Of a DNA stretch of 64,000 nt, positions 1 to 45,789 are shown piece by piece (within the stretch, counting starts at the first letter, position 1; every line of letters starts with the position of its first letter). A program made the position numbers and the translations under genes. The notes under the pieces were generated by a model. That model had not been told where the DNA came from. It saw only the letters and a program-made list of their open reading frames with translations, and ran no database searches. Source of the DNA: Nemertoderma westbladi (taxonomy: Eukaryota > Animalia > Xenacoelomorpha); NCBI GenBank assembly GCA_032718475.1, contig JAUCBJ010008813.1, positions 63,417 through 127,416 on the forward strand, written 5' to 3'.

Positions 1-3000
1 AGACTTAGAGATATCGTTGTAAGTTTATCTGTAGAGAGACTTAGAGAGATCGTTGTAAGTTTATCTGTAGAGACTTAGAGAGATCGTTGTAAGTTTATCT
101 GTAGAGAGACTTAGATAGATCGTTGTAAGTTTATCTGTAGAGACTTAGATAGATCGTTGTAAGTTTATCTGTAGAGAGACTTAGAGAGATCGTTGTAAGA
201 TTATCTGTAGAGAGACTTAGAGAGATCGTTGTAAGTTTATCTGTAGAGAGACTTAGAGAGATCGTTGTAAGTTTATCTGTAGAGAGACTTAGAGAGATCG
301 TTGTAAGTTTATCTGTAGAGAGACTTAGAGAGATCGTTGTAAGTTTATCTGTAGAGAGACTTAGAGAGATCGTTGTAAGTTTATCTGTAGAGACTTAGAG
401 AGATCGTTGTAAGTTTATCTGTAGAGAGACTTAGAGAGATCGTTGTAAGTTTATCTGTAGAGAGACTTAGAGAGATCGTTGTAAGTTTATCTGTAGAGAC
501 TTAGAGAGATCGTTGTAAGTTTATCTGTAGAGAGACTTAGATAGATCGTTGTAAGTTTATCTGTAGAGACTTAGATAGATCGTTGTAAGTTTATCTGTAG
601 AGAGACTTAGAGAGATCGTTGTAAGTTTATCTGTAGAGAGACTTAGAGAGATCGTTGTAAGTTTATCTGTAGAGACTTAGAGAGATCGTTGTAAGTTTAT
701 CTGTAGAGAGACTTAGAGAGATCGTTGTAAGTTTATCTGTAGAGAGACTTAGAGAGATCGTTGTAAGTTTATCTGTAGAGACTTAGAGAGATCGTTGTAA
801 GTTTATCTGTAGAGAGACTTAGAGAGATCGTTGTAAGTTTATCTGTAGAGACTTAGAGAGATCGTTGTAAGTTTATCTGTAGAGAGACTTAGAGAGATCG
901 TTGTAAGTTTATCTGTAGAGAGACTTAGAGAGATCGTTGTAAGTTTATCTGTAGAGACTTTGAGAGATCGTTGTAAGTTTATCTGTAGAGAGACTTAGAT
1001 AGATCGTTGTAAGTTTATCTGTAGAGACTTAGAGAGATCGTTGTAAGTTTATCTGTAGAGACTTAGAGAGATCGTTGTAAGTTTATCTGTAGAGAGACTT
1101 AGAGAGATCGTTGTAAGTTTATCTGTAGAGACTTAGAGAGATCGTTGTAAGTTTATCTGTAGAGAGACTTAGAGAGATCGTTGTAAGTTTATCTGTAGAG
1201 ACTTAGAGAGATCGTTGTAAGTTTATCTGTAGAGAGACTTAGAGAGATCGTTGTAAGTTTATCTGTAGAGAGACTTAGAGAGATCGTTGTAAGTTTATCT
1301 GTAGAGAGACTTAGAGAGATCGTTGTAAGTTTATCTGTAGAGACTTAGAGAGATCGTTGTAAGTTTATCTGTAGAGAGACTTAGAGAGATCGTTGTAAGT
1401 TTATCTGTAGAGAGACTTAGAGAGATCGTTGTAAGTTTATCTGTAGAGAGACTTAGAGAGATCGTTGTCAGTTTATCTGTAGAGACTTAGAGAGATCGTT
1501 GTAAGTTTATCTGTAGAGAGACTTAGAGAGATCGTTGTAAGTTTATCTGTAGAGAGACTTAGATAGATCGTTGTAAGTTTATCTGTAGAGACTTAGAGAG
1601 GTCGTTGTAAGTTTATCTGTAGAGAGACTTAGAGAGATCGTTGTAAGTTTATCTGTAGAGAGACTTAGAGAGATCGTTGTAAGTTTATCTGTAGAGAGAC
1701 TTAGAGAGATCGTTGTAAGTTTATCTGTAGAGAGACTTAGAGAGATCGTTGTAAGTTTATCTGTAGAGAGACTTAGAGAGATCGTTGTAAGTTTATCTGT
1801 AGAGGCTTAGAGAGATCGTTGTAAGTTTATCTGTAGAGAGACTTAGAGAGATCGTTGTAAGTTTATCTGTAGAGAGACTTAGAGAGATCGTTGTCAGTTT
1901 ATCTGTAGAGAGACTTAGAGAGATCGTTGTAAGTTTATCTGTAGAGAGACTTAGAGAGATCGTTGTAAGTTTATCTGTAGAGAGACTTAGAGAGATCGTT
2001 GTAAGTTTATCTGTAGAGACTTAGAGAGATCGTTGTCAGTTTATCTGTAGAGAGACTTAGAGAGATCGTTGTAAGTTTATCTGTAGAGACTTAGAGAGAT
2101 CGTTGTCAGTTTATCTGTAGAGAGACTTAGAGAGATCGTTGTAAGTTTATCTGTAGAGAGACTTAGAGAGATCGTTGTAAGTTTATCTGTAGAGACTTAG
2201 AGAGATCGTTGTCAGTTTATCTGTAGAGAGACTTAGAGAGATCGTTGTAAGTTTATCTGTAGAGACTTAGAGAGATCGTTGTCAGTTTATCTGTAGAGAG
2301 ACTTAGAGAGATCGTTGTCAGTTTATCTGTAGAGAGACTTAGAGAGATCGTTGTAAGTTTATCTGTAGAGAGACTTAGAGAGATCGTTGTAAGTTTATCT
2401 GTAGAGAGACTTAGATAGATCGTTGTAAGTTTATCTGTAGAGACTTAGAGAGGTCGTTGTAAGTTTATCTGTAGAGAGACTTAGAGAGATCGTTGTAAGT
2501 TTATCTGTAGAGAGACTTAGAGAGATCGTTGTAAGTTTATCTGTAGAGAGACTTAGAGAGATCGTTGTAAGTTTATCTGTAGAGAGACTTAGAGAGATCG
2601 TTGTAAGTTTATCTGTAGAGAGACTTAGAGAGATCGTTGTAAGTTTATCTGTAGAGACTTAGAGAGATCGTTGTAAGTTTATCTGTAGAGAGACTTAGAG
2701 AGATCGTTGTAAGTTTATCTGTAGAGAGACTTAGAGAGATCGTTGTAAGTTTATCTGTAGAGACTTAGAGAGATCGTTGTCAGTTTATCTGTAGAGAGAC
2801 TTAGAGAGATCGTTGTAAGTTTATCTGTAGAGAGACTTAGAGAGATCGTTGTAAGTTTATCTGTAGAGAGACTTAGAGAGATCGTTGTAAGTTTATCTGT
2901 AGAGACTTAGAGAGATCGTTGTCAGTTTATCTGTAGAGAGACTTAGAGAGATCGTTGTAAGTTTATCTGTAGAGAGACTTAGAGAGATCGTTGTAAGTTT

Positions 3001-4138
3001 ATCTGTAGAGAGACTTAGAGAGATCGTTGTAAGTTTATCTGTAGAGAGACTTAGAGAGATCGTTGTAAGTTTATCTGTAGAGAGACTTAGAGAGATCGTT
3101 GTAAGTTTATCTGTAGAGAGACTTAGAGAGATCGTTGTAAGTTTATCTGTAGAGACTTAGAGAGATCGTTGTAAGTTTATCTGTAGAGAGACTTAGAGAG
3201 ATCGTTGTAAGTTTATCTGTAGAGAGACTTAGAGAGATCGTTGTAAGTTTATCTGTAGAGAGACTTAGAGAGATCGTTGTAAGTTTATCTGTAGAGACTT
3301 AGAGAGATCGTTGTAAGTTTATCTGTAGTGAGACTTAGAGAGATCGTTGTAAGTTTATCTGTAGAGAGACTTAGATAGATCGTTGTAAGTTTATCTGTAG
3401 AGACTTAGAGAGATCGTTGTAAGTTTATCTGTAGAGAGACTTAGAGAGATCGTTGTAAGTTTATCTGTAGAGAGACTTAGAGAGATCGTTGTAAGTTTAT
3501 CTGTAGAGACTTAGAGAGATCGTTGTAAGTTTATCTGTAGAGACTTAGAGAGATCGTTGTAAGTTTATCTGTAGAGAGACTTAGAGAGATCGTTGTAAGT
3601 TTATCTGTAGAGAGACTTAGAGAGATCGTTGTCAGTTTATCTGTAGAGAGACTTAGAGAGATCGTTGTAAGTTTATCTGTAGAGAGACTTAGAGAGATCG
3701 TTGTAAGTTTATCTGTAGAGAGACTTAGAGAGATCGTTGTAAGTTTATCTGTAGAGACTTAGAGAGATCGTTGTAAGTTTATCTGTAGAGAGACTTAGAG
3801 AGATCGTTGTAAGTTTATCTGTAGAGAGACTTAGAGAGATCGTTGTAAGTTTATCTGTAGAGAGACTTAGAGAGATCGTTGTAAGTTTATCTGTAGAGAC
3901 TTAGAGAGATCGTTGTAAGTTTATCTGTAGAGAGACTTAGAGAGATCGTTGTAAGTTTATCTGTAGAGAGACTTAGATAGATCGTTGTAAGTTTATCTGT
4001 AGAGACTTAGAGAGATCGTTGTAAGTTTATCTGTAGAGAGACTTAGAGAGATCGTTGTAAGTTTATCTGTAGAGAGACTTAGAGAGATCGTTGTAAGTTT
4101 ATCTGTAGAGAGACTTAGAGAGATCGTTGTAAGATTAT
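1..4138 (+). repeat. 34/36-bp tandem array (~115 copies; runs off the window start) built from an EPC exon 3' end plus its splice donor
   Basis: Unit is AGAGACTTAGAGAGATCGTT|GTAAGTTTATCTGT(AG). The exon part reads R-D-L-E-R-S-(TT) and joins the exon at 4203 in frame (TT|G GAC CTT). Copy number estimated from length. Confidence 0.95.
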
Positions 4139-4202
4139 ACGTTCTGTTATGTTAATGTTAAACCGTTCTAAATTTGGTTACCATGGTATTTTGTTTATTT
4201 AG

Positions 4203-7200
4203 GGACCTTCTGAATTTAGTTCGTAAACGGGAGAAACAAAAAAAGGAGTTGGTACGTTTGTCTATAGAACTGTATGAGAAGCAGTACCAGATGGGAGACT
4301 ATACCTCGACAGTCTACAATGACCTCGTCAAGGTTTTGAGACACGAGAAACCCTCGTACACAGTGCCAGTAGTGCCCAAATACAGACGGCAGGGGGAGCA
4401 GACCCACCCAAGGGTAAGTAAGAAACCCTCGTACACAGTGCCAGTAGTGCCCAAGTACAGACGGACGGCAGGGGGAGCAGACCCACCCAAGGGTAAGTAA
4501 GAAACCCTCGTACACAGTGCCAGTAGTGCCCAAGTACAGACGGACGGCAGGGGGAGCAGACCCACCCAAGGGTAAGTAAGAAACCCTCGTACACAGTGCC
4601 AGTAGTACCCAAGTACAGACGGACGGCAGGGGGAGCAGACCCACCCAAGGGTAAGTAAGAAACCCTCGTACACAGTGCCAGTAGTGCCCAAGTACAGACA
4701 GACGGCAGGGGGAGCAGACCCACCCAAGGGTAAGTAAGAAACCCTCGTACACAGTGCCAGTAGTACCCAAGTACAGACGGACGGCAGGGAGAGCAGACCC
4801 ACCCAAGGGTAAGTAAGAAACCCTCGTACACAGTGCCAGTAGTACCCAAGTACAGACGGACGGCAGGGAGAGCAGACCCACCCAAGGTAAGTAAGAAACC
4901 CTCGTACACAGTGCCAGTAGTACCCAAGTACAGACGGACGGCAGGGGGAGCAGACCCACCCAAGGTAAGTAAGAAACCCTCGTACACAGTGCCGTTATTG
5001 TTCCAGGACGACTACCGTAAGCGCCGCCGTTACGAACGTTCCCGCGGTGGTTCTATCGCCAAACTGAAGTCCTACCGTTCGGTGTACCCTCCCCACCCGG
5101 GTAGCCAACCCCCCTACCGTGGCAACCCCACCCACCATCCACCCGCGCACTACCCCCCCTCCGCCCAGACGTCCCAGCACCCACCCAGACTGCGGGTGGA
5201 CTCCTCCAGGGTCTACGAGTTGGGGGAGACAGAGCGACGGGCCGTCGAGACATCGACAGTTCCTGCACAGTCGCCGGCCCAAAAGGTTAGATAAAGTAAA
5301 CCAACGGAATTTATTATATGTTATTCTTTAAGAAATATGTGAAACGCTTGCACTTAATTTAAAGAAGTAATTTAATTGGAAAGTTTGAGATTACAGTAAC
5401 TTAAATTAAATTTAATTAATTAATTAATGCAATTAAATCCTATATTCTCCTTCTTCTATAATACAATTGCCAATGATATATGTTTGTTTGACACAGCCGT
5501 ATCTACACCTAAACGCTCCGGTGGTTTGCTACAAGACTTTGTATGGTGATTTACATGTGTATTGGCCATGGAATAGGAAAGTTACGCATTAATTAATTAA
5601 TTAATTCTCGAGATAATTAAGAAATTGATTGGAATTGAATTGAAAATTGAAATGTTTTCATTATATGGAATTTTTCTATCAGTAAACCAACCAGTAATCA
5701 ATAGCAAGGCATTGATTACAGGCAGAAAGCCGGTCTTCCCAGGATGCCTTGTATAAGGCGAAGCAGGACTCCGCCTTTCTTGGTGTTCCCGCTGAACGGC
5801 GCACGGCGGTTGAGAGAACGGTGTCCCACAAGACGGGTGGGTGGCTGTCAGCGCAGCCCTCCGTTGTGGATCACAGTGATCACAACGATCTGGACCCGGA
5901 GGTGTTCCGCGATAACCTCAATCTGAGGTATGGACTGACACCACCGAGTCTACCAGCTAGCTGCGAGGGGTGTGGGGGGGCGTTTACGACCTCGCATGCC
6001 CTGAATTGCAAGTCTGGTGGGCTCATTATAAAGCGCCATGACGAGGTTCGCGAGGTATTCGGAGACCTCATTGCGACTGCCTTTGGGGGGTCGGTTGTCC
6101 AGCGGGAGGTCACGTTGGTAACTGTGACCCTGATAGACAGGGCCGCGAGGTGGGGGGAGTCAGGGCAGACCTCTTGGCGAGGGGAGTCGGGGCCGAACTG
6201 AGGGTGGCGTCTTTTGATATCGCGATCATTAACGCTGACGCCCCCTCATACGTTAATCGGACCCTAGACTCCGCCCTCCAACAGCGGGTCCGCGCAAAGA
6301 AGGGTCCACTACGGTGCGGTTTGCGAGGATCGCCGGATCTCCTTCACCCCCCTAGTCGGAACCACCGTCGGGGTGTGGTGCAAGGAGGCCGAGATCTTGA
6401 TTCGCCACGTAGCGGAGACCTTAGTCGCACGGCGGGATGCAATGCGTCAACGCGGCCTTGCGTGCGTGTTGGGCGGGGTTCGGAGGCGCCTCCAATTCGC
6501 GCTACTCCGCTCCAACTCCCTCTGTCTGCGCGGTGGTCGAAGGCCGTGGAGGGGACTCGGGTTTGTAGACGGTGCCGGTCTGAGGGGGTCTGACCTCCCA
6601 GATCGTTACTGATCCCCCCCCCCCCCCCCCCCCCCACTCTTTAATTACTTCACATGTCTTCTGGTGGTGGGTCATCATTTACCTTTTTGATGCATTTTAT
6701 AATATATTACTTTATGAGAATTTAGAAGCAAGTATTCCAGTCAAATTGTAATCAATAGCAAGATAATATTAATATAACTTTATCTTACTACTTTTTCAGA
6801 AGTGTAAGATAAAGTGAATGTCACCAAAATCCCGCCACATATACTAATAACTTAGGAATTTAATCCAAAATTGCAATCCCGATCCCGGAAATCCCGAAAA
6901 GTCAGGTCCCGTTTGAACACTATGATATACCATCGAAAATAGAAATTTGAAAAACAAGTTTCTGGCCCCCACTAACAGCCTGCGGTAGATTTTTAACAAA
7001 ATTTATCTAAAAACACTTATCCCGCACATTAGTTGGAGCCCCCATTCTGCTCCCATTCTGCCCCCATTCTGCTCCCATTCTGCCCCCATTATGTCCCCAT
7101 TTTGCCCCCATTCTGCTCCCATTCTGCCCCCATTCTGCTCCCATTCTGCCCCCATTCTGCCCCATTATGTCCCCATTTTGCCCCCATTCTGCTCCCATTC

Positions 7201-10200
7201 TGCCCCCATTATGTCCCCATTTTGCCCCCATTCTGCCCCCATTCTGCTCCCATTCTGCCCCCATTCTGCTCCCATTTTGCCCCCATTCTGCCCCCATTAT
7301 GTCCCCATATTACCCCCATTCTGTTCCCATTCTGCCCCCATTCTGCTCCCATTCTGCCCCCATTCTGCTCCCATTCTGCCCCCATTCTGCTCCCATTCTG
7401 CCCCCATTCTGCTCCCATTCTGCCCCCATTCTGCCCCCATTCTGCTCCAATTCTGCCCCCATTTTGCCCCATTCTGCTCCCATTCTGCCCCCATTATGTC
7501 CCCATTTTGCCCCCATTCTGCTCCCATTCTGCCCCCATTATGTCCCCATTTTGCCCCCATTCTGCCCCCATTCTGCTCCCATTCTGCCCCCATTCTGCTC
7601 CCATTTTGCCCCCATTCTGCCCCCATTCTGCCCCCATTATGTCCCCATTTTACCCCCATTCTGCTCCCATTCTGCTCCCATTCTGCCCCCATTCTGCCCC
7701 TGCCCCCATTCTGCCCCCATTATGCCCCCATTTTACCCCCATTCTGCTCCCATTCTGCCCCCATTCTGCTCCCATTCTGCCCCCATTCTGCTCCCATTCT
7801 GCCCCCATTATGTCCCCATTTTGCCCCCATTCTGCTCCCATTCTGCCCCCATTATGTCCCCATTCTGCCCCCATTCTGCCCCCATTCTGCCCCCATTATG
7901 CCCCCCTTATGTCCCCATTTTGCTCCCATTCTGCTCCCATTTTGCCCCCATTTTGCCCCCATTCTGCTCCCATTTTGCTCCCATTCTGCCCCCATTCTGT
8001 TCCCATTCTGCTCCCATTTTGCCCCCATTATGTCCCCATTTTGCTCCCATTCTTCCCCCATTATGCTCCCTTTTGGATTATGATTACGATTATGCCGACC
8101 TAAAATTTTCATTATGGCGGTTTTCGTGGTCGAGGATTTCTTTTTCAAAATTAGTTGTGGAATATTTGGTGGAATCTAGGTCAGTCTGTCCGCGGGTCTG
8201 TTTTACATTTTACGGACAGACCGGATGACTGACAGACATCGGGAACTAAGAAATCTAGCCGTATTCTAGAAAGCTAACCCGTATTCAGATCTGAAATCCT
8301 TTTTAAATTTACCAGCGGTATTTTGTTGAATATAATTTATTCAATAAATTTATTTATATTAATTACGAATTTATTTGAATATTTCTTAAGGTAAATTTGT
8401 TACCCAATTGTAATTTTATTATAATAATAAACGTTCAGAATCAATCTCGGATCTTCTCCCTTTTTAGGGAGAGTATGTTGGATTTATATTATAAATACTG
8501 GTTTCCGTCGTCAATTTATATTTTCGTTTGAAATTACGTATAGCTAGAAGTTAACAACGTTTTATGGTTTATAGCCTACTCCAGCGGCGGTTGCTGTGGA
8601 TCTACAACCCGATGGACAGTTCACATTCCGAAGAATAGATGGCGCTTCATACTATGCAGTAAGTGTTACACCTTCGGGGGGGGGGGGGGGGGGGGGGGTA
8701 GAGGAAGGGTTGTATATAATTCATTATCATATCGTTTAGGCTTCTACAACAGACACAGTGCAATCAATGTATCCTCCACCCTACCGCTTGATGGCGTTAC
8801 ACTCGCCTGGCGCTCACACCCCTGGCGACGGCGATAGTCCAATAGGAAGGGGGCGTCATCGTTGCCTTGGATACGGTCGTCGGAGATTGGCCAGAGGCGG
8901 TAGGGTGTCCCTTGATAGGTGGGTGGACATTAACTTTAATTTAACCAATAATTATCTTATTAATTGTTGTTGTTACACTATTTTACATTATCTCTTTTTT
9001 TAATCAGTTTAAAAACAATAAATTTATAATTTAATATTTAACGATTTTAATTTAGAGATTTTAAATGTCGGAAGATTATAATACTCGAAATATTTCATCC
9101 GAAACTACATAGATGCACGATTTCACAGACTTTTATGAACGGGACTTGGTAACAAACTACACGAAAATCAATATTAGGCCCTTCAAATAGTTTCTACAGG
9201 GGCTTGGAATATAAGTTACTCTAATTATATTTAATATATATTTTCAATTCGCAAATTGTTAAAGCGTCGTCTCTATTACTGAATAGCACAACATATCTAC
9301 CGTGTGCCCCATCACAGTCAATGTTAGCGACGGCTACATCAGCTAATGGAGTTCCACAATGGACTTTATCATTGATTGTTCCCAAGGCATTCAGTAAACT
9401 CCGGCGATTCTCGGTCAATACGAATATCTGAAAAGTTAAAATAGTTTTATTGGTTACCACCACAGTCACCCCTCTAGCGGGAGACTCGAAAAATACTAAT
9501 TATAATGTAAACATTAGACAGAGACTAGGTGTTTACCGGGTTTGGTTTCATTTCATCAAGATTAACTTGAGCTATTCGCTTTCAAACATTAGCTAACAGA
9601 CATACATACAGGACAGACCGACCGACCGACCGACCGACCGACCGACCGACCGACCGACCGACCGACCGACCGACCGACCGACCGACCGACCGACCGACCG
9701 ACCGACCGACCGACCGACCGACCGACCGACCGACCGACCGACCGACCGACCGACCGACCGACCGACCGACCGACCGACCGACCGACAGACAACTACTGAA
9801 ACAGCGGTTCCCCTATGTTAAGATCTTTTACTGTATTGATGCGGTAATAATAACATATTTATCTAAGTCGAACCTTGGCTCCTGTAATTCTGTGTGAGCA
9901 GCAGTCCTTTCTGTTGTAAACGACAACATTGCTGATCGAGGTTACTATCTCAAGGTCCACCCAGAACCAGTGAGGTCCATTGTTTCCGGCTGTGTGTGAA
10001 CAAGAGTTGCGGTTATACCGGCCACCTGTGTTACCATCCACCGCTCTAGAGGATAGTCCACCAGAATCTGTACTATCCTGTCCGGTTGGTTTAGCTATGG
10101 CGACATTACCTACACAACATAATGGTAAACTCGAACTATAGCTTGCGATATTGATATTCTCAGAAAATAATAAATTTTGAGATTTTTGTTTTTTTTTAAA

Positions 10201-13200
10201 CACCCGGAACTAATAACTCGATGAAATTGGAAGTATACTTCATAAAACATTACTTAACATAAGATAGTTCCAAATCCTCTTTGACCGAATTGTTCCTATC
10301 GGAACTCCAGAACTGTTTTCAATCCCCCATAACTACCTACTCCCCGGGAGAAACTAACACTCATTTAGATACCATTAGTGTGCCTTGGCTAGTTCCTTAG
10401 TTACTACCCAGGTCCCCATGCCGGGCTCGAAGCCACGACCTCGACGATAAATTTAATCCAACGGATTTAACCACGACGCCAAGATGAACATGTTATGGGA
10501 CATGGGACACATTTTCGAGTATTTTGTTTAGATATTGTTTTATGCTAAAATTTCACCTACAAGTTCTCCATGCTACATATTCTATTAAGCTTTAATATTC
10601 AGGATACTGAATTTCTATAACATGGAACTTACGCTTCTTGTTTTCAAGCAGGCAAGTTTCTTCAATATATTCCAAGTGGTAATTTGTGGTGTTTCTGACT
10701 CCCTTACACAACCACTGAAACGTACATAAAATTACAGTTATAGTATGATGGTGTCAGACTGACTGTCATATTATAATCATAGACAGTGGTATTATGGTCA
10801 GTTACACTTACTGGTACTGTAGTTGTCAGACTGACGGTCATATAATCATAGGAATACGATGGTACGAGATCATCTGGACTCACATCCTCCGCATATTTGT
10901 CGTTTAATTGGCAAGCGAATCCATCTGATTGCTTGTTGTTTCTAAAGTTGATTGATTTGCAATTACGATTCCTGTAATTTAATTGTGTAATCTTGTTTAC
11001 ATCATGGTGTAATGTAATGTAATACTTTATAGGATTACTATGCAGTATACATGTTGGTTTACTTACTTTATATCGCACCGGCCCACATGCATTCACCTCA
11101 AACACAACGCCGCTACCACAATAGTAAAGGAAACTCTTTTTTAGTATTTAATATTATTATTTTGTATTTTATTTAAAAGTCAAGGAGAATAAACTATTGA
11201 GATTCTCAGAGGTGTTTATTAATAAGTTCTGCTCTGATTAACATCTCATTGTACAGTGTAGCCTATAGCGAACCATTAGGTGGTCTCTTACTCCACTATA
11301 TTGGTACACTATGCACACCCAACAATGGCCTTATAGTATATTTGATACAAAACATTGAATAGAATTGAATTGAATTTCGTATTGAATCCGTATTCGATCC
11401 TCAACGCATAGCCTAGAATCCAATATCTTGGATTTCTGATATAAGTAAATTGTGCCATAATGTTTAAATAACTCACCCGGTACACACACCAGCACATCTT
11501 AATAACTCACCTGGGTACACACACATACCAGCACATCTTAATAACTCACCCGGTACGGGTACACACACCAGCACACATCTGAATAACTCACCTGGTACAC
11601 ATACCTGCACATCTTAATAACTCACCTGGTACACATAGCAGCACATCTTAATAACTCACCTGGGTACACACACACACCAGCACATCTTAATAACTCACCT
11701 GGTACACATACCAGCCACATCTTAATAACTCACCTGGGTACACAACACACACATACCAGCAGATCTTAATAACTCACCTAGTACACATACCAGCACATCT
11801 CAATAACTCACCTGGTACACATAGCAGCACATCTTAATAACTCACCTGGGTACACACACATACCAGCACATCTTAATAACTCACCTGGTATACATACCAG
11901 CCACATCTTAATAACTAACCTGGTACACATACCAGCCACATCTTAATAACTCACCTGGGTACACAACACACACATACCAGCAGATCTTAATAACTCACCT
12001 GGGTACACAACACACACATACCAGCAGATCTTAATAACTCACCTGGTACACATACCAGCACATCTTAATAACTCACCTGGTACACATACCAGCACATCTT
12101 AATAACTCACCTGGTACACATACCAGCACACATCTTAATAACTCACCTGGGTACACAACACACACATACCAGCAGATCTTAATAACTCACCTGGTACACA
12201 TACCAGCACACATCTTAATAACTCACCTGGTACACACACCAGCACACATCTTAATAACTCACCTGGTACACATACCAGCACACATCTTAATAACTCACCT
12301 GGGTACACAACACACACATACCAGCAGATCTTAATAACTCACCTGGTACACATACCAGCACATCTTAATAACTCACCTGGGTACACACACATACCGGCAC
12401 ACATCTTAGTAACTCACCTGGTACACATACCAGCACATCTTAATAACTCACCTGGGTACACACACATACCGGCACACATCTTAGTAACTCACCTGGTACA
12501 CATACCAGCACATCTTAATAACTCACCTGGGTACACATGCCAGCACACATCTGAATAACTCACCTGGTACACATACCAGCACATCTTAATAACTCACCTG
12601 GGTACACACACATACCGCCACACATCTTAGTAACTCACCTGGTACACATACCAGCACATCTTAATAACTCACCTGGGTACACACACATACCGGCACACAT
12701 CTTAGTAACTCACCTGGTACACATACCAGCACATCTTAAGAACTCGTACACACACATACCAGCACACATCTTAGTAACTCACCTGGTACACATACCAGCA
12801 CATCTTAATAACTCACCTGGGTACCCACACACACATACCATCACATCTTAATAACTCACCTGGTACACATACCAGCACATCTTAATAACTCACCTGGGTA
12901 CACACACATACCAGCACACATCCTAGTAACTCACCTGGTACATATACCAGCACATCTTAATAATTCACCTGGGTACACATACATACCAGCACACATCTTA
13001 ATAACTCACCTGGGTACACAACACACACATACCATCACAACTTAATAACTCACCTGGTACACATACCAGCACATCTTAATATCTCACCTGGGTACACACA
13101 CATACCAGCACACATCTTAGTAACTCACCTGGTACATATACCAGCACATCTTAATAACTCACCTGGGTACACATACATACCAGCACACATCTTAATAACT

Positions 13201-16200
13201 CACCTGGGTACACAACACACACATACCATCACAACTTAATAACTCACCTGGTACACATACCAGCACATCTTAAGAACTCACCTGGTACACATACCAGCAC
13301 ATCTTAATAACTCACCTGGTACACATACCAGCACATCTTAATAACCCACCTGGTACACATACCAGCACATCTTAATAACTCACCTGGTACACATACCAGC
13401 ACATCTTAATAACTCACCTGGTACACATACCAGCCACATCTTAATAACTCACCTGGTACACATACCAGCACATCTTAATAACTCACCTGGTACACATACC
13501 AGCACATCTTAATAACTCACCTGGTACACATACCAGCACATCTTAATAACTCACCTGGGTACACACACATACTAGCACACATCTTAACAACTCACCTGGT
13601 ACACATACCAGCACATCTTAATAACTCACCCGGTACACATACCAGCACATCTTAATAACTCACCTGGTACACATATCAGCCACATCTTAATAACTCACCT
13701 GGTACACATACCAGCACATCTTAATAACTCACCTGGTACACATACCAGCACTTCTTAATAACTCACCTGGTACACATACCAGCACATCTTAATAACTCAC
13801 CTGGTACACATACTAGCACACATCTTAACAACTCACCTGGTACACATACCAGCACATCTTAATAACTCACCTGGTACACATACATACCAGCACACATCTT
13901 AGTAACTCACCTGGCTGGTACACATACTAGCACACATCTTAATAACTCACCTGGTACACATACTAGCACACATCTTAATAACTCACCTGGTACACATACT
14001 AGCACACATCTTAATAACTCACCTGGTACACATACATACCAGCACACATCTTAGTAACTCACCTGGCTGGTACACATACTAGCACACATCTTAATAACTC
14101 ACCTGGTACACATACTAGCACACATCTTAGTAACTCACCTGGTACACATACCAGCACATCTTAATAACTCACCTGGTACACATACATACCAGCACATCTT
14201 AATAACTCACCTGGTACACATACCAGCACATCTTAATAACTCACCTGGTACACATACCAGCCACATCTTAATAACTCACCTGGTACACATACCAGCACAT
14301 CTTAATAACTCACCTGGTACACATACCAGCACATCTTAATAACTCACATGGTACACATACCAGCCACATCTTAATAACTCACCTGGTACACATACCAGCA
14401 CATCTTAATAACTCACCTGGTACACATACATACCAGCACATCTTAATAACTCACCTGGTACACATACATACCAGCACACATCTTAGTAACTCACCTGGCT
14501 GGTACACATACTAGCACACATCTTAATAACTCACCTGGTACACATACTAGCACACATCTTAGTAACTCACCTGGTACACATACCAGCACATCTTAATAAC
14601 TCACCTGGTACACATACATACCAGCACATCTTAATAACTCACCTGGTACACATACCAGCACATCTTAATAACTCACCTGGTACACATACCAGCACATCTT
14701 AATAACTCACCTGGTACACATACCAGCACATCTTAATAACTCACCTGGTACACATACCAGCACATCTTAATAACTCACCTGGTACACATACCAGCACATC
14801 TTAATAACTCACCTGGGTACACACACATACTAGCACACATCTTAATAACTCACCTGGTACACATACTAGCACACATCTTAGTAACTCACCTGGTACACAT
14901 ACCAGCACATCTTAATAACTCACCTGGTACACATACATACCAGCACATCTTAATAACTCACCTGGTACACATACCAGCACATCTTAATAACTCACCTGGT
15001 ACACATACCAGCACATCTTAATAACTCACCTGGTACACATACCAGCACATCTTAATAACTCACCTGGTACACATACCAGCACATCTTAATAACTCACCTG
15101 GTACACATACCAGCACATCTTAATAACTCACCTGGGTACACACACATACTAGCACACATCTTAATAACTCACCTGGTACACATACTAGCACACATCTTAA
15201 TAACTCACCTGGTACACATACTAGCACACATCTTAATAACTCACCTGGTACACATACATACCAGCACACATCTTAGTAACTCACCTGGCTGGTACACATA
15301 CTAGCACACATCTTAATAACTCACCTGGTACACATACTAGCACACATCTTAGTAACTCACCTGGTACACATACCAGCACATCTTAATAAATCACCTGGTA
15401 CACATACATACCAGCACATCTTAATAACTCACCTGGTACACATACCAGCACATCTTAATAACTCACCTGGTACACATACCAGCACATCTTAATAACTCAC
15501 CTGGTACACATACCAGCACATCTTAATAACTCACCTGGTACACATACCAGCCACATCTTAATAACTCACCTGGTACACATACCAGCACATCTTAATAACT
15601 CACCTGGTACACATACCAGCACATCTTAATAACTCACCTGGTACACATACCAGCACATCTTAATAACTCACCTGGTACACATACCAGCCACATCTTAATA
15701 ACTCACCTGGTACACATACCAGCACATCTTAATAACTCACCTGGTACACATACCAGCACATCTTAATAACTCACCTGGTACACATACCAGCACATCTTAA
15801 TAACTCACCTGGGTACACACACATACTAGCACACATCTTAACAACTCACCTGGTACACATACCAGCACATCTTAATAACTCACCTGGTACACATACCAGC
15901 CACATCTTAATAACTCACCTGGTACACATACATACCAGCACATCTTAATAACTCACCTGGTACACATACCAGCCACATCTTAATAACTCACCTGGTACAC
16001 ATACCAGCACATCTTAATAACTCACCTGGTACACATACATACCAGCACATCTTAATAACTCACCTGGTACACATACCAGCACATCTGATCCGAGAGATTG
16101 GCTTATTTTCAGTTGTTATTACATGTTCTACTAGCAGGTGATTCTGATAGGACTCGTATGTCAACTCCCTATGCCACTTCTTGTACTACAACAATATACG

Positions 16201-19200
16201 TAGTCTATTGAGTTGTAGAAGATTGAAGTCAGTATAATAGTTTGTAGAAGTTGAAAGTTCTCATCCATAATACAGTATAATAACGAATATTCCTCACCAT
16301 AAACTAACTAAGCATTTAGAATAATTGTATCCGCGTCCTAAAACCCAATTAAATAAATATTGTATTATTTGAAAAAAAAAAAGTTAGTATAACACGAAAC
16401 TATGCAGTTCTATGTGAATTGTAGTTTTGTTAAGATTATAAGTAAACATTCAAAGATTACGTTTTGTAACTTTATACAGGTTTGGAATGCAGGTGTACTG
16501 AGCTAATTCAACTTTTAATACAACATAAATATTGTAACAGTAATTACCTCAAAGTAGTTTTATATACTTCAAAGTGTACCATCAAACAGAGTATAATTGT
16601 TTTTTCATTTGAATTTAAATTAGCGATTAATAAATTATATTACGAATAAATTGCAGCTGTTGCCTTCGATCATTATCAGTACCCTGTGGTTAGTTCTATT
16701 GGCGACACACAATTATTTCACAACCATAAATTATATTGGTGTAATATACTTTAGAGACACAAAAGTTTGAGATACTGCATTGCATTTCATTTAGTCAATC
16801 CACTAACTCCAACTGGTTGAACTTATTAGAGCATTAAAGTCTATCTGAAGTCCTTTATATACAACTAATTATTATTCTAGAATCCACCACGAACTCGATT
16901 CGTTACTCTCTCAAACCGCCAGTGTATCACAAAGTCTTCCTTCACTTTCACAAACTGATTCTTTTGATTGGCTGTAAGTAAATCTATTACTATAATATTA
17001 TTTTACCTTACAGATTGTTCATATATTAGGTCACGATATTTTGACTCATTCCTTCCCAATTTCATGTTTATCATAAAATTCCAGACCCCCCACCCCCCTT
17101 CGGCGATGCATGCAACCAGAGATCAGCTGATCGGTAGGTTTCGCCACGCTCAGCTGAAGGCATTCTCAGGAGGCCAAGCCATGAAAAGTCTTGTTGACTG
17201 GCTTGAACTGTTTACATTTCAAAGTAACCGCACGACACTCACTACGTCCTATTTACCCAATGTACTCACACACAAGCCCGCCATTAACAAACATAATCGT
17301 GATTGACTAAGTTTGTGGTGCTGCTTCCCAGTGGTTAGTTACAACACAAACGTCTCTCTTCTGTTCACTAACCGTTCTTTCTCCGTTTGGGATTTCTCTC
17401 TAAAGAGATTTTCTTTGCTTGACCTCCTGAGAATGCCGTCAGCTGCGGAGCGAAACCTACCGATCAGCTGATCTCTGATAGCATGCGATCAAAATAGATC
17501 CAGTTGCATTTAGTTTTTTATTTTTTGGTCCTTGCTCACCACCGGTAAGGCCCTTGCTCCACTGGCAACACATGTCAGAAGTCAGTGTGCTCCCGTGCAC
17601 CACTGGTAAGTCATACGTCTTTTCTTTAAGAATATAAGATGGGTCTCACATTCAATCGAACACTTGAACATTTAATGGCTTGCTGCTACCCAAAGTAACC
17701 AATCACAGGCCTCTTGCCAGAAAGAACTCATGGGTCGTATGTCAAAAATGGAACATGGGACATAATCACTTTCGACTCATGGGTCGTAACAAACGACTTA
17801 TGACATACCAGTGTAGACGCTCCCATTGAAACCTGATGTGTTTCTTAATTTATTTTGACTTATGACATACGACAACACGTTCGTGGGGACTTCGCGCAGC
17901 ACGAGAGTGCATGCATACGTACAAATTTTGGTTTAATTTAATCTGCAATTGCCCGACTTATTTCGGTTTTTATAAAAAGTCTGAACTGCAATTGCCCGAC
18001 TTATTTCGGTTTTTATAAAAAGTCTGAAACCACCGGTACCGACTGACCTATTTTTAGTAACTTCAGATACTTTCCAAACTTTTAATGGACTGCATACGTA
18101 CAAGTTTGGTTTAATTCATCATTTGATTGAACGACTTATTTCAGTTTTTATCAAAAGTCTGAAACTACCGGTACCGAGTGTCCAACAGTCTTATTTTGAT
18201 AAAAACTCAGATTATTTCTAAATTTCTAATAGACTGCATGCATAATGTAATAAAAGTTGGTTTAATTCTAGTAATTATTGTTGGCTTTAAAAAAAATGTA
18301 ATATAAAAAACGTGCAAAATAAGTTTCGCCAGAGATATGATTCGAACCAGCGCGAGAAGATCCATTGGATGGATAGTCCAACGCCTTATCCACTCAGCCA
18401 ACACCGCTCGAGGTAACGAGCTGGCCAATGAAGGTATTAAAGTTTTATACTGCAATTTCATAATCACTACTGATAAGTACAACAGTAGGCCTAGCGTACC
18501 GGTAGGCCTATGTCATTACTTCGGAGTCTCTAGCGGATCCCCAATTAAATGTCTTAACTTTTCAATTTCGTAAAAGATAGACTTCATAATTCTCTACAAG
18601 CAACCAAAATTTCAGCTCAGGAAAATGAGGCGTTCCCGAGAAATTTAACATTTTCTAAAAACCACATAATCTGTCGTAGCTGACGTCAGACTGCATGATT
18701 TTTCACCAAACTTTACAAACTTTCTAAACTTTCTCTCTACTACTTACCTACTAAGTTTGGTTCAATTCCGAACGAGCGATGCCGAGAAATTCGCGTTCAA
18801 ACATTTACCAGACGGACGGACAGACAGACAGACGGACAGACAGACAGACAGACAGACGGACATGCCCCATTTGCCCTATATGAACCGTATGCCAAGGCTC
18901 GCCGACTACGTGTCTCGCCCCACATATGACTTACCAGTGGAGTACGAGCCTAAGATTTTTTACTCAACATTACTGAATAATTTAGTAATTTTTTTATGTT
19001 TTCTCAATGTTCTTCAACCTGAATGTTGGCCTGCGGATTGTGAATTAATACCGGTGTGTAACTCGTTTCTTCTTCGCCTTTCTTACTGTTGTTTACAGGG
19101 ACTTTATATCAATCCGTCTTTATCTGTTTATATTAAATTATTAAATTATTTTATGTTTCAGTTCGTCTCTTAGTTTCTCCCCTCAAGAACCGACTAGCAG

Positions 19201-19804
19201 TAGGTATCTGCCCCCCCGAACCCCGTCGCCCCCTCTCCCGTCCCCCAACACCCCTCCGTCGGAGACCACCCGGGTCTGGCTGGTGGACCACGGCTATTCG
19301 GCGTCCCCGCGGACCCTCACAACGCCCCCTAGCGGGGACCCCAGAACAAACAACCCACAATCCACATCGCACACCAAGGCTTTCTCACAGCACCGCCATC
19401 AAATCGACAATCTATACGGAACACTGCCTCGCGTAAACCCTTCAATTCGTGACTCATCGTCGTCTAGGCGACCAACCTCAACCAATCAGCGAGCGGCGTC
19501 GCCTAGCAACGAGGACCCCTTCCCGCGCATACAATCGCCCAAAGCGCATCTCGCTGTGAACGCGCTCCTCGCTACGCTCGTTAACCAGCAACGGGAGCCC
19601 CCCGCATGGCTCGCCCCGTCCGCCGCGACGGAACCGGTTGGCGTCTCTGAGTCGCTAGCGCCCCCCAGCGGCGTCGGACAGGAGGATATGGTCGACTCGT
19701 TGCTATTGGAGACGGAATCAACCCCCGGGGGCGACTCCTTGTTGAAGCGGTCGCCCCAGCAACAGTTAATACTGGTAGCTAAGGGAGTGAACGGAGTAGT
19801 CTAG
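4203..19804 (+). CDS. EPC: Enhancer of Polycomb homolog (NuA4/TIP60 subunit), 3' part; exons 4203-4413, 5007-5285, 8575-8658, 8740-8918, 19162-19804 (5' exons lie upstream of the window)
   Basis: GT-AG boundaries are phase-consistent. Peptides DLLNLVRKREKQKKELVRLSIELYEKQYQMGDY, PDGQFTFRRIDGASYYA, RCLGYGRRRLARGGRVSLD and RYLPPRTPS match recalled EPC1 motifs (IKRREKSKRELLHLTLEIMEKRYNLGDY, PDGPFAFRRKAGCQYYA, RCIGFARRRVGRGGRVLLDR, RPRTPS). An extra small exon after 8918 cannot be excluded. Confidence 0.88.
4347..4993 (+). repeat. 75-79-bp tandem array: one exonic copy, 7 full and 1 partial intronic copies of the EPC exon end plus GTAAGT donor
   Basis: Units start at 4347, 4422, 4501, 4580, 4659, 4738, 4817, 4895 and 4973. 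Full units end CCAAG(G)|GTAAGTAA. Confidence 0.95.
5709..6747 (+). mobile_element. 5'-truncated, frameshifted CRE-type non-LTR retrotransposon (zinc knuckle plus restriction-like endonuclease) in an EPC intron
   Basis: Motifs GGWL..FRDNLNLRYG..CEGCG..HALNC.SGGLII.RHDEVRE..RADL..FDI.IINADAPSY are spread over three frames. A 15-bp direct repeat GTAATCAATAGCAAG sits at 5694-5708 and 6748-6762. Confidence 0.85.
7037..8070. repeat. 11-bp minisatellite (CCCATTCTGCC / CCCATTCTGCT), probably inside a HINE-like element (~6950-8295)
   Basis: Clear 11-bp period; followed by a GACAGAC-containing tail similar to other HINE-like copies in the window. Confidence 0.9.
9221..16185 (-). CDS. PAN/Apple + F-type lectin (fucolectin/FTP) protein nested antisense in an EPC intron; exons 16185-16064, 10971-10812, 10714-10633, 10109-9874, 9427-9221; 5' end unresolved
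   Basis: All junctions are GT-AG and phase-consistent. PAN cysteines: CAGMCTR|RNRNCKSINF..CQLN. F-lectin motifs: NVAIAKP.GQ, AVDGN, CSHT..WFWVDL..NRKDCCSHR (H-x27-R-x-D-x4-R), GRYV, LTICE. Confidence 0.88.
9530..9830 (+). mobile_element. HINE/DINE-1-like element remnant with an expanded (GACC)n microsatellite at ~9616-9785
   Basis: GTTTGGTTT..CATC core followed by a GACA/GACC microsatellite, as in the copies at ~18.7 kb, ~25.8 kb and ~60.8 kb. Confidence 0.6.
10260..10480 (-). mobile_element. tRNA-derived SINE fragment
   Basis: Minus strand has A-box-like TGGCGTCGTGG and B-box-like GCTTCGAGCCC, followed by a CTCCCGGGGAG body. Confidence 0.55.
11467..16085 (-). repeat. 34-bp (variants to ~44 bp) tandem array, ~130 copies, built from the PAN exon 3' end plus its splice donor
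   Basis: Minus-strand unit is ATGTGCTGGTATGTGTACCAG|GTGAGTTATTAAG. The first copy is the real exon end (16084-16064). Copy number estimated from length. Confidence 0.95.
17108..17486. mobile_element. MITE with ~65-bp terminal inverted repeats
   Basis: GCATGC..AGAGATCAGCTGATCGGTAGGTTTCGC..GGCATTCTCAGGAGG at the left has its reverse complement at ~17422-17486. Related sequence occurs at ~57105-57232. Confidence 0.8.
17905..18935 (+). mobile_element. HINE/DINE-1-like (Helentron-associated) element with internal tandem subrepeats, a (GACA/GACG)n tract and a 3' hairpin-like end
   Basis: Repeated CGACTTATTTCGGTTTTTAT blocks; microsatellite at 18810-18860; ends GGCTCGCCGACTACGTGTCTCGCCCCACA. Similar TCGCCCC ends at ~25920, ~34345 and ~60985. 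Confidence 0.6.
18327..18407 (-). pseudogene. tRNA-Ser-like pseudogene or SINE head
   Basis: Minus strand reads GCGGTGTTGGCTGAGTGGATAAGGCGTTGGACT..TCCAATGG..CGCGCTGGTTCGAATC. D-loop, long variable arm and T-loop resemble tRNA-Ser, but the anticodon loop and acceptor stem are degenerate. Confidence 0.65.
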
Positions 19805-20403: not shown

Positions 20404-20836
20404 CAACTTATTATTAAATTGTATAGTTGAATCCTAATAACCAATATATAATTTATTCAGCCGCCTTATTCCATAACAGTGTGTTTAGCATCTCCAGACA
20501 ATGTCTCATATTCAATTTATTAGTTTAGGTTTTATTCTCATTTGGTTTATATTATATTAGCGTAAAGCTTTCGGTCTGTTCGTAACCCATATTAACACAT
20601 ATCAATATATATTGATTTAGGCGGGAAATCCTTCTGTAATATTCAGCATATTGTGTGTATTATTTTAATGATTACACGGAGTATTAAATACACGTTTATT
20701 ACCGGTATTAGGATAGTGAGTGTGAATATTAGGTGTAGCATTATACGGGTGAATCGCGAAAGAACTTTTTTGTGGTTGCGGATATTTCGAAGGTTATGGA
20801 TTGGTATGTGACACTATGGGATTAAATCGAACATCA

Positions 20837-23800
20837 TTGTGTGTGGTTGGAACTAACACCTTGTGTGTGGTTGGAACTAACACCTTGTGTGTGGTTGGAA
20901 CTAACACCTTGTGTGTGGTTGGAACTAACACCTTGTGTGTGGTTGGAACTAACACCTTGTGTGTGGTTGGAACTAACACCTTGTGTGTGGTTGGAACTAA
21001 CACCTTGTGTGTGGTTGGAACTAACACCTTGTGTGTGGTTGGAACTAACACCTTGTGTGTGGTTGGAACTAACACCTTGTGTGTGGTTGGAACTAACACC
21101 TTGTGTGTGGTTGGAACTAACACCTTGTGTGTGGTTGGAACTAACACCTTGTGTGTGGTTAGATCTAGATCTAACACCTTTGGGTGCGGTTAGATGTAAC
21201 ACCTTTGAGTGCGGATAGATCTAACACCTTTTGGGTGCGGTTAGATCTAACACCTTTGAGTGCGGATAGATCTAACACCTTTGAGTGCGGATAGATCTAA
21301 CACCTTTGGGTGCGGTTAGATCTAACACCTTTGAGTGCGGATAGATCTAACACCTTTGGGTGCGGATAGATCTAACACCTTTGGGTGCGGTTAGATCTAA
21401 CACCTTTGGGTGCGGTTAGATATAACACCTTGTGTGTGGTTAGATCTAACACCTTTGGGTGCGGTTAGATATAACACCTTGTGTGTGGTTAGATCTAACA
21501 CCTTTGGGTGCGGTTAGATATAACACCTTGTGTGTGGTTAGATCTAACACCTTTGAGTGCGGATAGATCTAACACCTTTGAGTGCGGATAGATCTAACAC
21601 CTTTGGGTGCGGTTAGATCAACACCTTTGGGTGCGGTTAGATATAACACCTTGTGTGTGGTTAGATCTAACACCTTTGGGTGCGGTTAGATATAACACCT
21701 TGTGTGTGGTTAGATCTAACACCTTTGGGTGCGGTTAGATATAACACCTTGTGTGTGGTTAGATCTAACACCTTTGGGTGCGATTAGATATAACACCTTG
21801 TGTGTGGTTAGATCTAACACCTTTGAGTGCGGTTAGATATAACACCTTTGAGTGCGGTTAGATCTAACACCTTTGAGTGCGTATAGATCTAACACCTTTG
21901 AGTGCGGATAGATCTAACACCTTTGGATGCGGTTAGATCTAACACCTTTGGGTGCGGTTAGATATAACACCTTGTGTGTGGTTAGATCTAACACCTTTGG
22001 GTGCGGTTAGATATAACACCTTTGAGTGCGGTTAGATCTAACACCCTTGAGTGCGGATAGATCTAACACCTTTGAGTGCGGATAGATCTAACACCTTTGG
22101 GTGCGGTTAGATCTAACACCTTTGGGTGCGGTTAGATAAAACACCTTGTGTGTGGTTAGATCTAACACCTTTGAGTGCGGTTTATATATAACACCTTTGA
22201 GTGCGGTTAGAACTAACACCTTTGAGTGCGGATAGATCTAACACCTTTGGGTGCGGTAAGATCTAACACCTTTGGGTGCGGTTAGATATAACACCTTGTG
22301 TGTGGTTAGATCTAACACCTTTGAGTGCGGTTAGATCTAACACCTTTGAGTGCGGATAGATCTAACACCTTTGAGTGCGGATAGATCTAACACCTTTGAG
22401 TGCGGTTAGATCTAACACCTTTGAGTGCGGTTAGATATAACACCTTGTGTGTGGTTAGATCTAACACCTTTGGGTGCGGTTAGATATAACACCTTGTGTG
22501 TGGTTAGATCTAACACCTTTGAGTGCGGTTAGATCTAACACCTTTGGGTGCGGTTAGATCTAACACCTTTGAGTGCGGTTAGATCTAACACCTTTGTGTG
22601 CGGTTAGATCTAACACCTTTGAGTGCGGTTAGATATAACACCTTTGAGTGCGGTTAGATCTAACACCTGTGGGTGCGGTTAGATCTAACACCTTTGGGTG
22701 CGGTTAGATATAACACCTTGTGTGTGGTTAGATCTAACACCTTTGTGTGCGGTTAGATCTAACACCTTTGAGTGCGGTTAGATCTAACACCTTTGAGTGC
22801 GGTTAGATCTAACACCTTTGGGTGCGGTTAGATCTAACACCTTTGAGTGCGGTTAGATATAACACCTTTGAGTGCGGTTAGATCTAACACCTTTGGGTGC
22901 GGTTAGATCTAACACCTTTGAGTGCGGTTAGATCTAACACCTTTGAGTGCGGTTAGATATAACACCTTTGAGTGCGGTTAGATCTAACACCTTTGTGTGC
23001 GGTTAGATCTAACACCTTTGAGTGCGGTTAGATATAACACCTTGTGTGTGGTTAGATCTAACACCTTTGGGTGCGGTTAGATATAACACCTTTGAGTGCG
23101 GTTAGATCTAACACCCTTGAGTGCGGATAGATCTAACACCTTTGAGTGCGGATAGATATAACACCTTTGGGTGCGGTTAGATCTAACACCTTTGGGTGCG
23201 GTTAGATATAACACCTTGTGTGTGGTTAGATCTAACACCTTTGAGTGCGGTTTATATATAACACCTTTGAGTGCGGTTAGATCTAACACCTTTGAGTGCG
23301 GATAGATCTAACACCTTTGGGTGCGGTTAGATCTAACACCTTTGGGTGCGGTTAGATATAACACCTTGTGTGTGGTTAGATCTAACACCTTTGAGTGCGG
23401 TTAGATCTAACACCTTTGAGTGCGGATAGATCTAACACCTTTGAGTGCGGATAGATCTAACACCTTTGAGTGCGGTTAGATCTAACACCTTTGAGTGCGG
23501 TTAGATATAACACCTTGTGTGTGGTTAGATCTAACACCTTTGGGTGCGGTTAGATATAACACCTTGTGTGTGGTTAGATCTAACACCTTTGAGTGCGGCT
23601 AGATCTAACACCTTTGGGTGCGGTTAGATCTAACACCTTTGAGTGCGGTTAGATCTAACACCTTTGTGTGCGGTTAGATCTAACACCTTTGAGTGCGGTT
23701 AGATATAACACCTTTGAGTGCGGTTAGATCTAACACCTTTGGGTGCGGTTAGATCTAACACCTTTGGGTGCGGTTAGATATAACACCTTGTGTGTGGTTA

Positions 23801-25557
23801 GATCTAACACCTTTGTGTGCGGTTAGATCTAACACCTTTGAGTGCGGTTAGATCTAACACCTTTGAGTGCGGTTAGATCTAACACCTTTGGGTGCGTTTA
23901 GATCTAACACCTTTGAGTGCGGTTAGATATAACACCTTTGAGTGCGGTTAGATCTAACACCTTTGGGTGCGGTTAGATCTAACACCTTTGAGTGCGGTTA
24001 GATCTAACACCTTTGAGTGCGGTTAGATATAACACCTTTGAGTGCGGTTAGATCTAACACCTTTGTGTGCGGTTAGATCTAACACCTTTGAGTGCGGTTA
24101 GATATAACACCTTGTGTGTGGTTAGATCTAACACCTTTGGGTGCGGTTAGATATAACACCTTGTGTGTGGTTAGATCTAACACCTTTGAGTGCGGTTAGA
24201 TCTAACACCTTTGAGTGCGGTTGGATCTAACACCTTTGGGTGCGGTTAGATCTAACACCTTTGAGTGCGGTTAGATATAACACCTTTGAGTGCGGTTAGA
24301 TCTAACACCTTTGGGTGCGGTTAGATCTAACACCTTTGAGTGCGGTTAGATCTAACACCTTTGAGTGCGGTTAGATATAACACCTTTGAGTGCGGTTAGA
24401 TCTAACACCTTTGTGTGCGGTTAGATCTAACACCTTTGAGTGCGGTTAGATATAACACCTTGTGTGTGGTTAGATCTAACACCTTTGGGTGCGGTTAGAT
24501 ATAACACCTTGTGTGTGGTTAGATCTAACACCTTTGAGTGCGGTTAGATCTAACACCTTTGGGTGCGGTTAGATCTAACACCTTTGAGTGCGGTTAGATC
24601 TAACACCTTTGTGTGCGGTTAGATCTAACACCTTAGAGTGCGGTTAGATATAACACCTTTGAGTGCGGTTAGATCTAACACCTTTGAGTGCGGATAGATC
24701 TAACACCTTTGGGTGCGGTTAGATCTAACACCTTTGGGTGCGGTTAGATATAACACCTTGTGTGTGGTTAGATCTAACACCTTTGGGTGCGGTTAGATAT
24801 AACACCTTGTGTGTGGTTAGATCTAACACCTTTGGGTGCGGTTAGATATAACACCTTGTGTGTGGTTAGATCTAACACCTTTGAGTGCGGTTAGATCTAA
24901 CACCTTTGTGTGCGGTTAGATCTAACACCTTTGAGTGCGGTTAGATATAACACCTTTGAGTGCGGTTAGATATAACACCTTTTAGTGCGGTTAGATATAA
25001 CACCTTGTGTGTGGTTAGATCTAACACCTTTGAGTGCGGTTAGATCTTACACCTTTGCGTGGTGTTAGATGTAACACCTTTGTGTGCGGTTAGATCTAAC
25101 ACCTTTGAGTGCGGTTAGATCTAACACCTTTGCGTGGTGTTAAATCTAACAACTTTGTGTGTGGTTAGATCTTACACCTTTGCGTGGTGTTAGATCTAAC
25201 ACCTTTGCGTGGTGTTAAATCTAACAACTTTGTGTGTGGTTAGATCTTACACCTTTGCGTGGTGTTAGATCTAACACCTTTGTGTGCGGTTAGATCTAAC
25301 ACCTTTGATTGCGGTTAGATCTAACACCTTTGCGTGGTGTTAAATCTTACAACTTTGTGTGTGGTTAGATCTTACACCTTTGCGTGATGTTAGATCTAAC
25401 ACCTTGTGTGTGGTTAGATCTAGATCTAACACCTTGTAGGCGGTTGGAATTTACACCTTGTGTGTGGTTAATAAATCTAGATCTCACACCTTTGAGTGCG
25501 GTTAGATCTAACACCTTGTGTGCGGTTAGATCTACCACTGTACGGTTAGATCTAACA
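20837..25557. repeat. 24/25-bp minisatellite; most units contain the palindrome GTTAGATCTAAC; includes a ~1070-bp higher-order duplication
   Basis: Main unit ATCTAACACCTTTGAGTGCGGTTAG; homogeneous 24-bp block at 20837-21160; rare variants recur 1070 bp apart (22041/23111 and 22181/23251). Confidence 0.95.
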
Positions 25558-45300: not shown

Positions 45301-45789
45301 CTCAAATTTTTATTTATTGAGATATTTCCAATAAATTTGGTTTATTTAACCTCATTTTGAGGTGCATTACATTAAGGTTTTTACAACCATTAATTTTCTT
45401 TCACAATAAATAACCTACAGACAACAACTTTGCCTTGAAACAGCATAATATGAATCTTTGTAACCTTTTTACATATTATTATTATTAAAAAATTATCAAT
45501 GCGTCCAAAAACTGAAAACTTCAGCTTCTTGGGATAGGGTCCAATATTAATTTATTTTTATTGCTTTGATTTGTTTTTACTCAATTTCGCACTGAGCCAC
45601 TTTCCACTATGACCCGGTATCACATTCCAAACTTTTTGGAAATCGACCACTACTACTTATGCAGGGCGAGAGCAATATGCTGACCTGTAAACTGGGAAAA
45701 ATATTAAAAATAAATGGTTAGAATTTAAATTAAACGAACAACATTATTTTCTATAATTTAAATTAGGATATATTTTGTGCTGATATATA

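Follow-up and report, generated by a model that had tools for sequence, protein, structure and literature searches.

Minisatellites that span exon-intron junctions are already known from lancelets and humans. The lancelet repeats, named 'mirages', were reported in Adh3, the globin genes BflGb6 and BflGb9, troponin C and PGBD5; the published descriptions place them on the donor and on the acceptor side (the latter in BflGb6), state that the mRNA stays normal and call their origin unclear (PMC3087553, PMC3902484). In human F7, Borensztajn et al. described a 37-bp variable number tandem repeat in intron 7 and demonstrated by mutation that splicing selects the donor lying furthest upstream. The same report names junction minisatellites in IFI6 (6-16), CBS intron 13, LMNB2 and PDGF intron 4, and gives exclusive use of the most upstream donor for F7, LMNB2 and PDGF and additional use of the next two donors for CBS and IFI6 (PMC1557585). 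Other accounts link boundary repeats to new introns (PMC2812944) or describe a pathogenic 403-bp duplication at the exon 8-intron 8 junction of FGG, with intron retention and a cryptic acceptor in the copy (PMC9052919). We analyzed a stretch of 64,000 nt from Nemertoderma westbladi contig JAUCBJ010008813.1 (the window, whose positions are used throughout) and found three arrays of this kind, A1, A2 and A3, in two genes. An earlier note on this DNA had drawn attention to them and knew of no named system; the lancelet and human repeats are such systems, and what is new here is the array length and the animal lineage.

The three arrays have unrelated sequences and were located by Tandem Repeats Finder (TRF; Table 1). 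A1 and A2 lie in the Enhancer of polycomb (EPC) gene, identified by a match to human EPC1 in the exon at 4204-4413 (E=1.3e-10), while A3 lies on the minus strand in a predicted gene with PAN and F-type lectin domains, in agreement with the earlier claim of two genes on opposite strands. All units are minisatellite-sized (34-36, 78-79 and about 34 nt, within the range of about 10-160 nt), and among the 116 complete units of A1, 33 have 34 nt and 83 have 36 nt. The edge unit of each array spans a real exon-intron boundary, so that the splice signal is repeated inside the intron. In A1, whose exon is outside the window, contigs from three sequencing runs (X1, X2 and X7) show that the unit consists of the last 11 nt of the EPC exon followed by 25 nt that start with the donor. 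The A2 unit is composed of about 70 nt of exon and 7-9 nt of intron, with a 4-nt insertion that is absent from the exon and common to the later units. The A3 unit is composed of the last 23 nt of exon A and about 11 nt of intron, and contains a 6-bp hairpin. Beyond the donor, no sequence is common to the three units. The earlier note had described the unit as 20-70 nt of exon plus a tiny piece running from GT to AG. The exon and the donor are indeed there, but the figure of 20 + 16 nt for A1, which was inferred without its exon, has to be replaced by 11 + 25, and the separate AG is matched by the exon in A2 and A3.

In all three arrays, the donor used by the spliced contig is the first one, and the array extends from it into the intron, as the earlier note had claimed. 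The splicing evidence comes from one contig per gene in one run, X2, which is labelled 'DNA?' and whose RNA nature was inferred from the exon-to-exon joins in its contigs; contigs drop rare forms. First, a contig of 1,883 nt spans 4203-4414 without mismatch, includes letters that only the first A2 unit has and continues into the exon at 5007, and therefore the first A2 donor is used. The last two A2 donors have the consensus AAG/GTAAGT, yet their use was not seen in this contig. Furthermore, this contig continues upstream into the same sequence through which the genome enters A1 in X1 and X7, and reads there as the expected EPC peptide, so that the first A1 donor is used as well. This donor is chosen although the last A1 donor would leave an intron of 74 nt; the single-copy stretch of this length that follows A1 is probably what is left of the original intron. 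No unit sequence is present at either EPC junction in the X2 contig. Finally, a contig of 882 nt has letters found only in the true exon A, which shows that the first A3 donor is used. The mRNA represented in the X2 contigs is spliced at the authentic donors without repeat units, with the acceptor in the A3 case lying past two predicted exons. Among the later donors, none of the 7 in A2 and none of the 125 in A3 is both in frame and stop-free. The earlier note had reasoned that the spliceosome must choose one donor among about 100 decoys or remove them recursively. The first alternative is what the contigs show, while recursive removal found no support: the pieces measure 9-16 nt and the units are absent from the spliced contigs, in which a traceless stepwise splicing would be invisible. 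We know of no spliceosomal intron in the 9-16 nt range.

The arrays themselves were found in two DNA runs, X1, which comes from another sample and study, and X7, which is possibly the window's own source. Summed contig depth over A1 was 6,669 in X1, against 29.9 in the flank, and about 1,550 in X7. A2 reached a depth of about 140 in X1, and an X7 contig shows the joint that goes back 79 nt. For A3, depth was 437 against 27.6 in X1 and 1,356 against 18 in X7. Depth is not copy number; no record spans an array, and the short-read contigs give no array lengths. Both runs show an identical genomic entry into A1, and the last A3 unit in X1 carries a 5-letter insertion relative to the window. All three arrays are real high-depth repeats in the two DNA runs. 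That they were created by the assembly is hardly credible: the lack of a record spanning their lengths and the possible identity of X7 with the assembly's source would leave room for it, but X1 has the depth excess at all three arrays and the same A1 entry as X7, and the units carry structured variants. As regards the presence of the arrays, an artefact is largely refuted.

We consider it likely that A1, A2 and A3 are mirage-type minisatellites, that is, ordinary local duplications that were amplified and are tolerated since the first donor wins. For their origin, turnover and neutrality we infer the following steps. Each array would have been seeded by one local duplication across the exon/donor border, with 0-2 nt of junction homology, through replication slippage or microhomology repair. 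The units would then have been amplified and homogenised by slippage and unequal exchange, as in the seven other arrays of the window. The choice of the first donor would obey a preference in the 5'-to-3' direction like that measured in human F7, and selection would remove arrays that disturb splicing, those remaining being intron filler without function. The arrays are likely to be tolerated, given the use of the first donor in the spliced contigs.

The sequence of the units fits such a turnover. They differ by point changes and dinucleotide slips, and in A3 the exon parts, 51 of 125 of which are identical to the true exon end, drift away from it with distance, the mean edit distance being 1.8 in the first 30 and 4.9 in the last 35 (rho 0.27, obtained from units that are not independent). 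Concerted evolution with diverged boundary units is seen in all three arrays, as an insertion shared by the A2 units, as this drift in A3 and as an exon match of only 11 nt in A1. F7, LMNB2 and PDGF, and the lancelet Adh3, globin, troponin C and PGBD5 genes, offer published precedents for this design, for splicing at the first site and for concerted evolution. The window is repeat-prone, which supports ordinary turnover: it harbors 10 arrays with at least 5 copies and a period of at least 10, a count that omits the period-4 microsatellites and the rows with 2-4 copies in the TRF output. Together these arrays occupy 20,036 of 64,000 nt (31%), and 7 of the 10 are not junction-built. Compared with shuffled sequences, A3 and a non-junction array of 34-nt units fold well below expectation (z about -4), while A1, A2 and six others do not, and a hairpin as the common seed was rejected on this ground.

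In A2 and A3, the true exon itself has the AG that closes the small piece, immediately ahead of the copied part. This AG is therefore either a portion of the exon copy or microhomology at the junction, and the shared design reduces to an exon end plus the first intron bases. The rolling-circle copying of a small circle closed at the AG, proposed in the earlier note, is left unsupported. More generally, we regard it as extremely unlikely that the GT...AG piece is a functional joint, copied in this way or recursively removed. All three units can be written with AG at the junction, but AG makes up 7.7% of the exon dinucleotides, and we estimate a chance of about 1 in 5 per array of finding it in one of three registers. 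Furthermore, the exon match of A1 begins 9 nt past that AG, the 20 nt of exon copy that remain after the last A2 donor need more than one event, and the units vary along the array instead of being uniform copies.

The A1 unit has additional features that would suit a function in splicing. In the 15 nt upstream of the 11-nt match, the unit reads L-stop-R-D-L and the exon reads L-R-R-D-L, with different codons, an echo expected by chance at about 1e-4 to 2e-4 for random sequence; EPC relatives carry K or R at the odd position of L-x-R-D-L. A pyrimidine-rich AG is found 18 or 20 nt before each donor, and the 18-nt piece keeps the EPC frame and has no stop. The later donors may thus be imagined as decoys or sinks that tune output, as the out-of-frame exon skip in the lectin contig discussed below would allow, or the A1 units as in-frame microexons of 18 nt encoding six residues, delimited by their internal AG and donor. 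Such a function is very unlikely in our opinion, given that unit sequence is missing from both junctions of the EPC contig and that the donor is all that the three units have in common. Besides, the likeness around R-D-L is also explained if the unit is an old copy, or fossil, of the exon end, or if the AG run within the unit slipped internally by 10 nt.

The position of the arrays raises the question of a mutational bias towards donors. None of the 10 arrays straddles any of the 18 acceptors located in the window; the earlier note had stated this for its three arrays. It had also considered three cases in 16 kb unusual, and this holds against random placement over 16 donors and 43,964 nt outside arrays, which predicts 0.13 arrays on donors; three were observed, with an unselected P(3 or more)=2e-4 that is weakened by an unknown factor, since the window was picked for the pattern. 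It is tempered, however, by the general abundance of tandem arrays not built on junctions. Counted by boundary, junction arrays occupy 3 of 16 donors (that of A1, and 15 that lie in the window) and 0 of 18 acceptors (Fisher p=0.094), most of these boundaries being predicted and 3 donors and 3 acceptors having contig support. A doubtful fourth case over the predicted donor of exon C (Table 1), which may instead be a repeat within the exon, would change this to 4 of 16 donors (p=0.039). Another array, at 61522-62443, starts 8 nt inside the predicted donor 62451 and copies neither exon nor donor. These observations would be expected if DNA across 5' splice sites were duplicated more often here, for example through transcription-coupled breaks or R-loops, and then underwent ordinary turnover. 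We find this doubtful. Neither the selected window nor the mostly predicted boundaries allow the counts to be taken at face value, acceptor-side mirages have been published (BflGb6; PMC3087553, PMC3902484), and survival bias predicts an equal asymmetry. A limited literature search turned up no paper tying R-loops to donor minisatellites and no genome-wide count of arrays at donors versus acceptors. It also seems unlikely that a border-specific bias has placed on about one in five donors a repeat of up to more than 120 decoys, with the first donor winning over more than 4 kb and one array being a codon fossil.

Ordinary duplication with tolerance, the explanation that we prefer, has several points against it. 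The excess over random placement is one of them: with 3 of 10 arrays on donors and a possible fourth case of two copies, chance combined with tolerance may be insufficient to account for so high a density. The RNA evidence consists of a single contig for each gene from a run of doubtful label. In addition, the lectin contig joins exon A to exon E and skips the predicted exons C and D, out of frame and with an immediate stop. This skip could be a cost of A3, another allele or a choice of the assembly, and A3 may not be harmless. Finally, the disease duplication in FGG indicates that tolerance is not automatic (PMC9052919).

The coordinates of the arrays and of the exons around them are given in Table 1.

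Table 1. Arrays and host-gene features in the window
Feature	Position	Strand	Remarks
Array A1	1-4138	+	TRF period 36; 117 donor-like sites; window begins inside the array
Final A1 donor-like site plus single-copy intron (74 nt) up to the acceptor	4129-4202	+	Probably left over from the original intron
EPC coding exon	4203-4413	+	In X2 spliced contig with zero mismatches
Array A2	4346-4993	+	TRF period 79; 8 donors spaced 78-79 nt; first donor 4414
Next EPC exon	5007-5294 (3' end provisional)	+	Joined to 4413 in X2 contig
Lectin-gene exon E, F-type lectin (F5/8 type C-like)	9874-10109	-	Joined directly to exon A in X2 contig
Exons C (from 10971; uncertain donor) and D (10714-10633) predicted for the lectin gene	10633-10971	-	Absent from X2 contigs
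Doubtful fourth case: a pair of diverged copies at a distance of 72 nt, over predicted exon C donor 10835	10752-10850	-	May be a repeat within the exon
Array A3	11467-16086	-	TRF period 34, units about 34 nt; 126 donor-like sites, 116 of them CAG/GTGAGT
Lectin-gene exon A	16064-16185	-	First half of predicted PAN domain; acceptor predicted; donor 16063 is the first A3 donor

A word-index search with the EPC exon gave 0 matches, and the relatives found with HMMER are only 32-50% identical. A frame rich in proline and serine (19145-19804, plus strand, 219 codons) follows an acceptor. It may belong to another gene, or it may be a terminal exon of EPC, in which case the lectin gene would lie within one of the EPC introns. 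The five predicted exons of the lectin gene form one open frame. Its PAN match is weak (E=0.0015, under the curated cut-off) and its F5/8 type C-like lectin match has E=6e-15. An exon at 11125-11069, guessed from the list of open reading frames, was dropped because exon A together with the exon at 10971 gives a better PAN-like reading and the open frame of five exons. The PAN-like exon region at 10870-10983 has a second copy elsewhere in the genome, about 87% identical, carried by X1 and X7. Three letters of the window, at 10398-10400, are missing from both DNA runs, possibly through an assembly error or as an allele. X5, a run from another organism, gave no contig over 9800-11520.

Several other repeats were found in the window. 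The array at 61522-62443 shares its 20-nt unit with another at 57559-59519, both in the same predicted minus-strand intron. Two non-junction arrays have palindromic cores, one of a 25-nt unit in 185 copies (20822-25566) and one of a 34-nt unit (47163-47475; z about -3.6 versus shuffles). C-rich, strand-skewed arrays with units of 12, 93 and 11 nt (52136-53067, 47956-48679 and 7038-8070) lie in or beside genes and are not junction-built. About 300 nt occur twice, 2 kb apart, at 39046-39352 and 41099-41405 (ends read by eye), with the same frame of 60 codons. A GC-rich, coding-like stretch with a broken frame (5716-6612, plus strand) ends before a poly-C run and has no Pfam match; we take it to resemble the end of an element related to reverse transcriptases. 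Two intronless genes were also detected. One, on the minus strand at 30579-32744, encodes a RING-finger protein, presumably TRIM-like. The other, on the plus strand at 45784-46926, encodes a fibrinogen domain and a hydrophobic stretch, with scattered matches (31-48% identical), many of them in marine invertebrates.

With this window, a repeat type known from other animals is documented in one more lineage, and with far longer arrays. In a gene that retains just 74 nt of single-copy intron, the first donor is chosen over more than 100 competitors that are nearly identical to it. Junction arrays also create false exons, and annotators should be cautious with them. Three points retain interest: the arrays are long, they are locally dense, and the codon echo in A1 lacks an explanation. 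The finding would matter more if an excess at donors were true genome-wide, and a border-specific bias, if real, would let these genes serve as a large natural experiment on first-come donor choice and on repeat birth linked to transcription.

Compared with the systems described, the FGG duplication is similar in being a tandem copy of an exon end and its donor inside the intron. Unlike A1, A2 and A3, it is reported as a single, long and harmful copy, the class that selection would remove. The human repeats in F7, CBS, IFI6, LMNB2 and PDGF are closer, since their first unit spans the exon end and the donor, pseudo-donors identical to it follow and the most upstream donor is used. Additional use of the next two donors, as described for CBS and IFI6, lies beyond what the contigs can tell for our arrays. 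The human set has 5-25 copies, and the F7 unit includes 4 nt of exon, while the exon share here is 11, 23 and about 70 nt. The lancelet mirages share with our arrays a unit of 10-160 nt across the exon-intron boundary, a normal mRNA, and concerted evolution with diverged edge units; PGBD5 even has two in one gene, as the EPC gene does. However, the published mirages occur on both sides of introns and ours are all on the donor side. Furthermore, the lancelet globin and PGBD5 repeats are reported with 2-7 copies, whereas the longest arrays found here, in another animal lineage, reach 117 or more and 126 copies, respectively, and extend over 4 kb.

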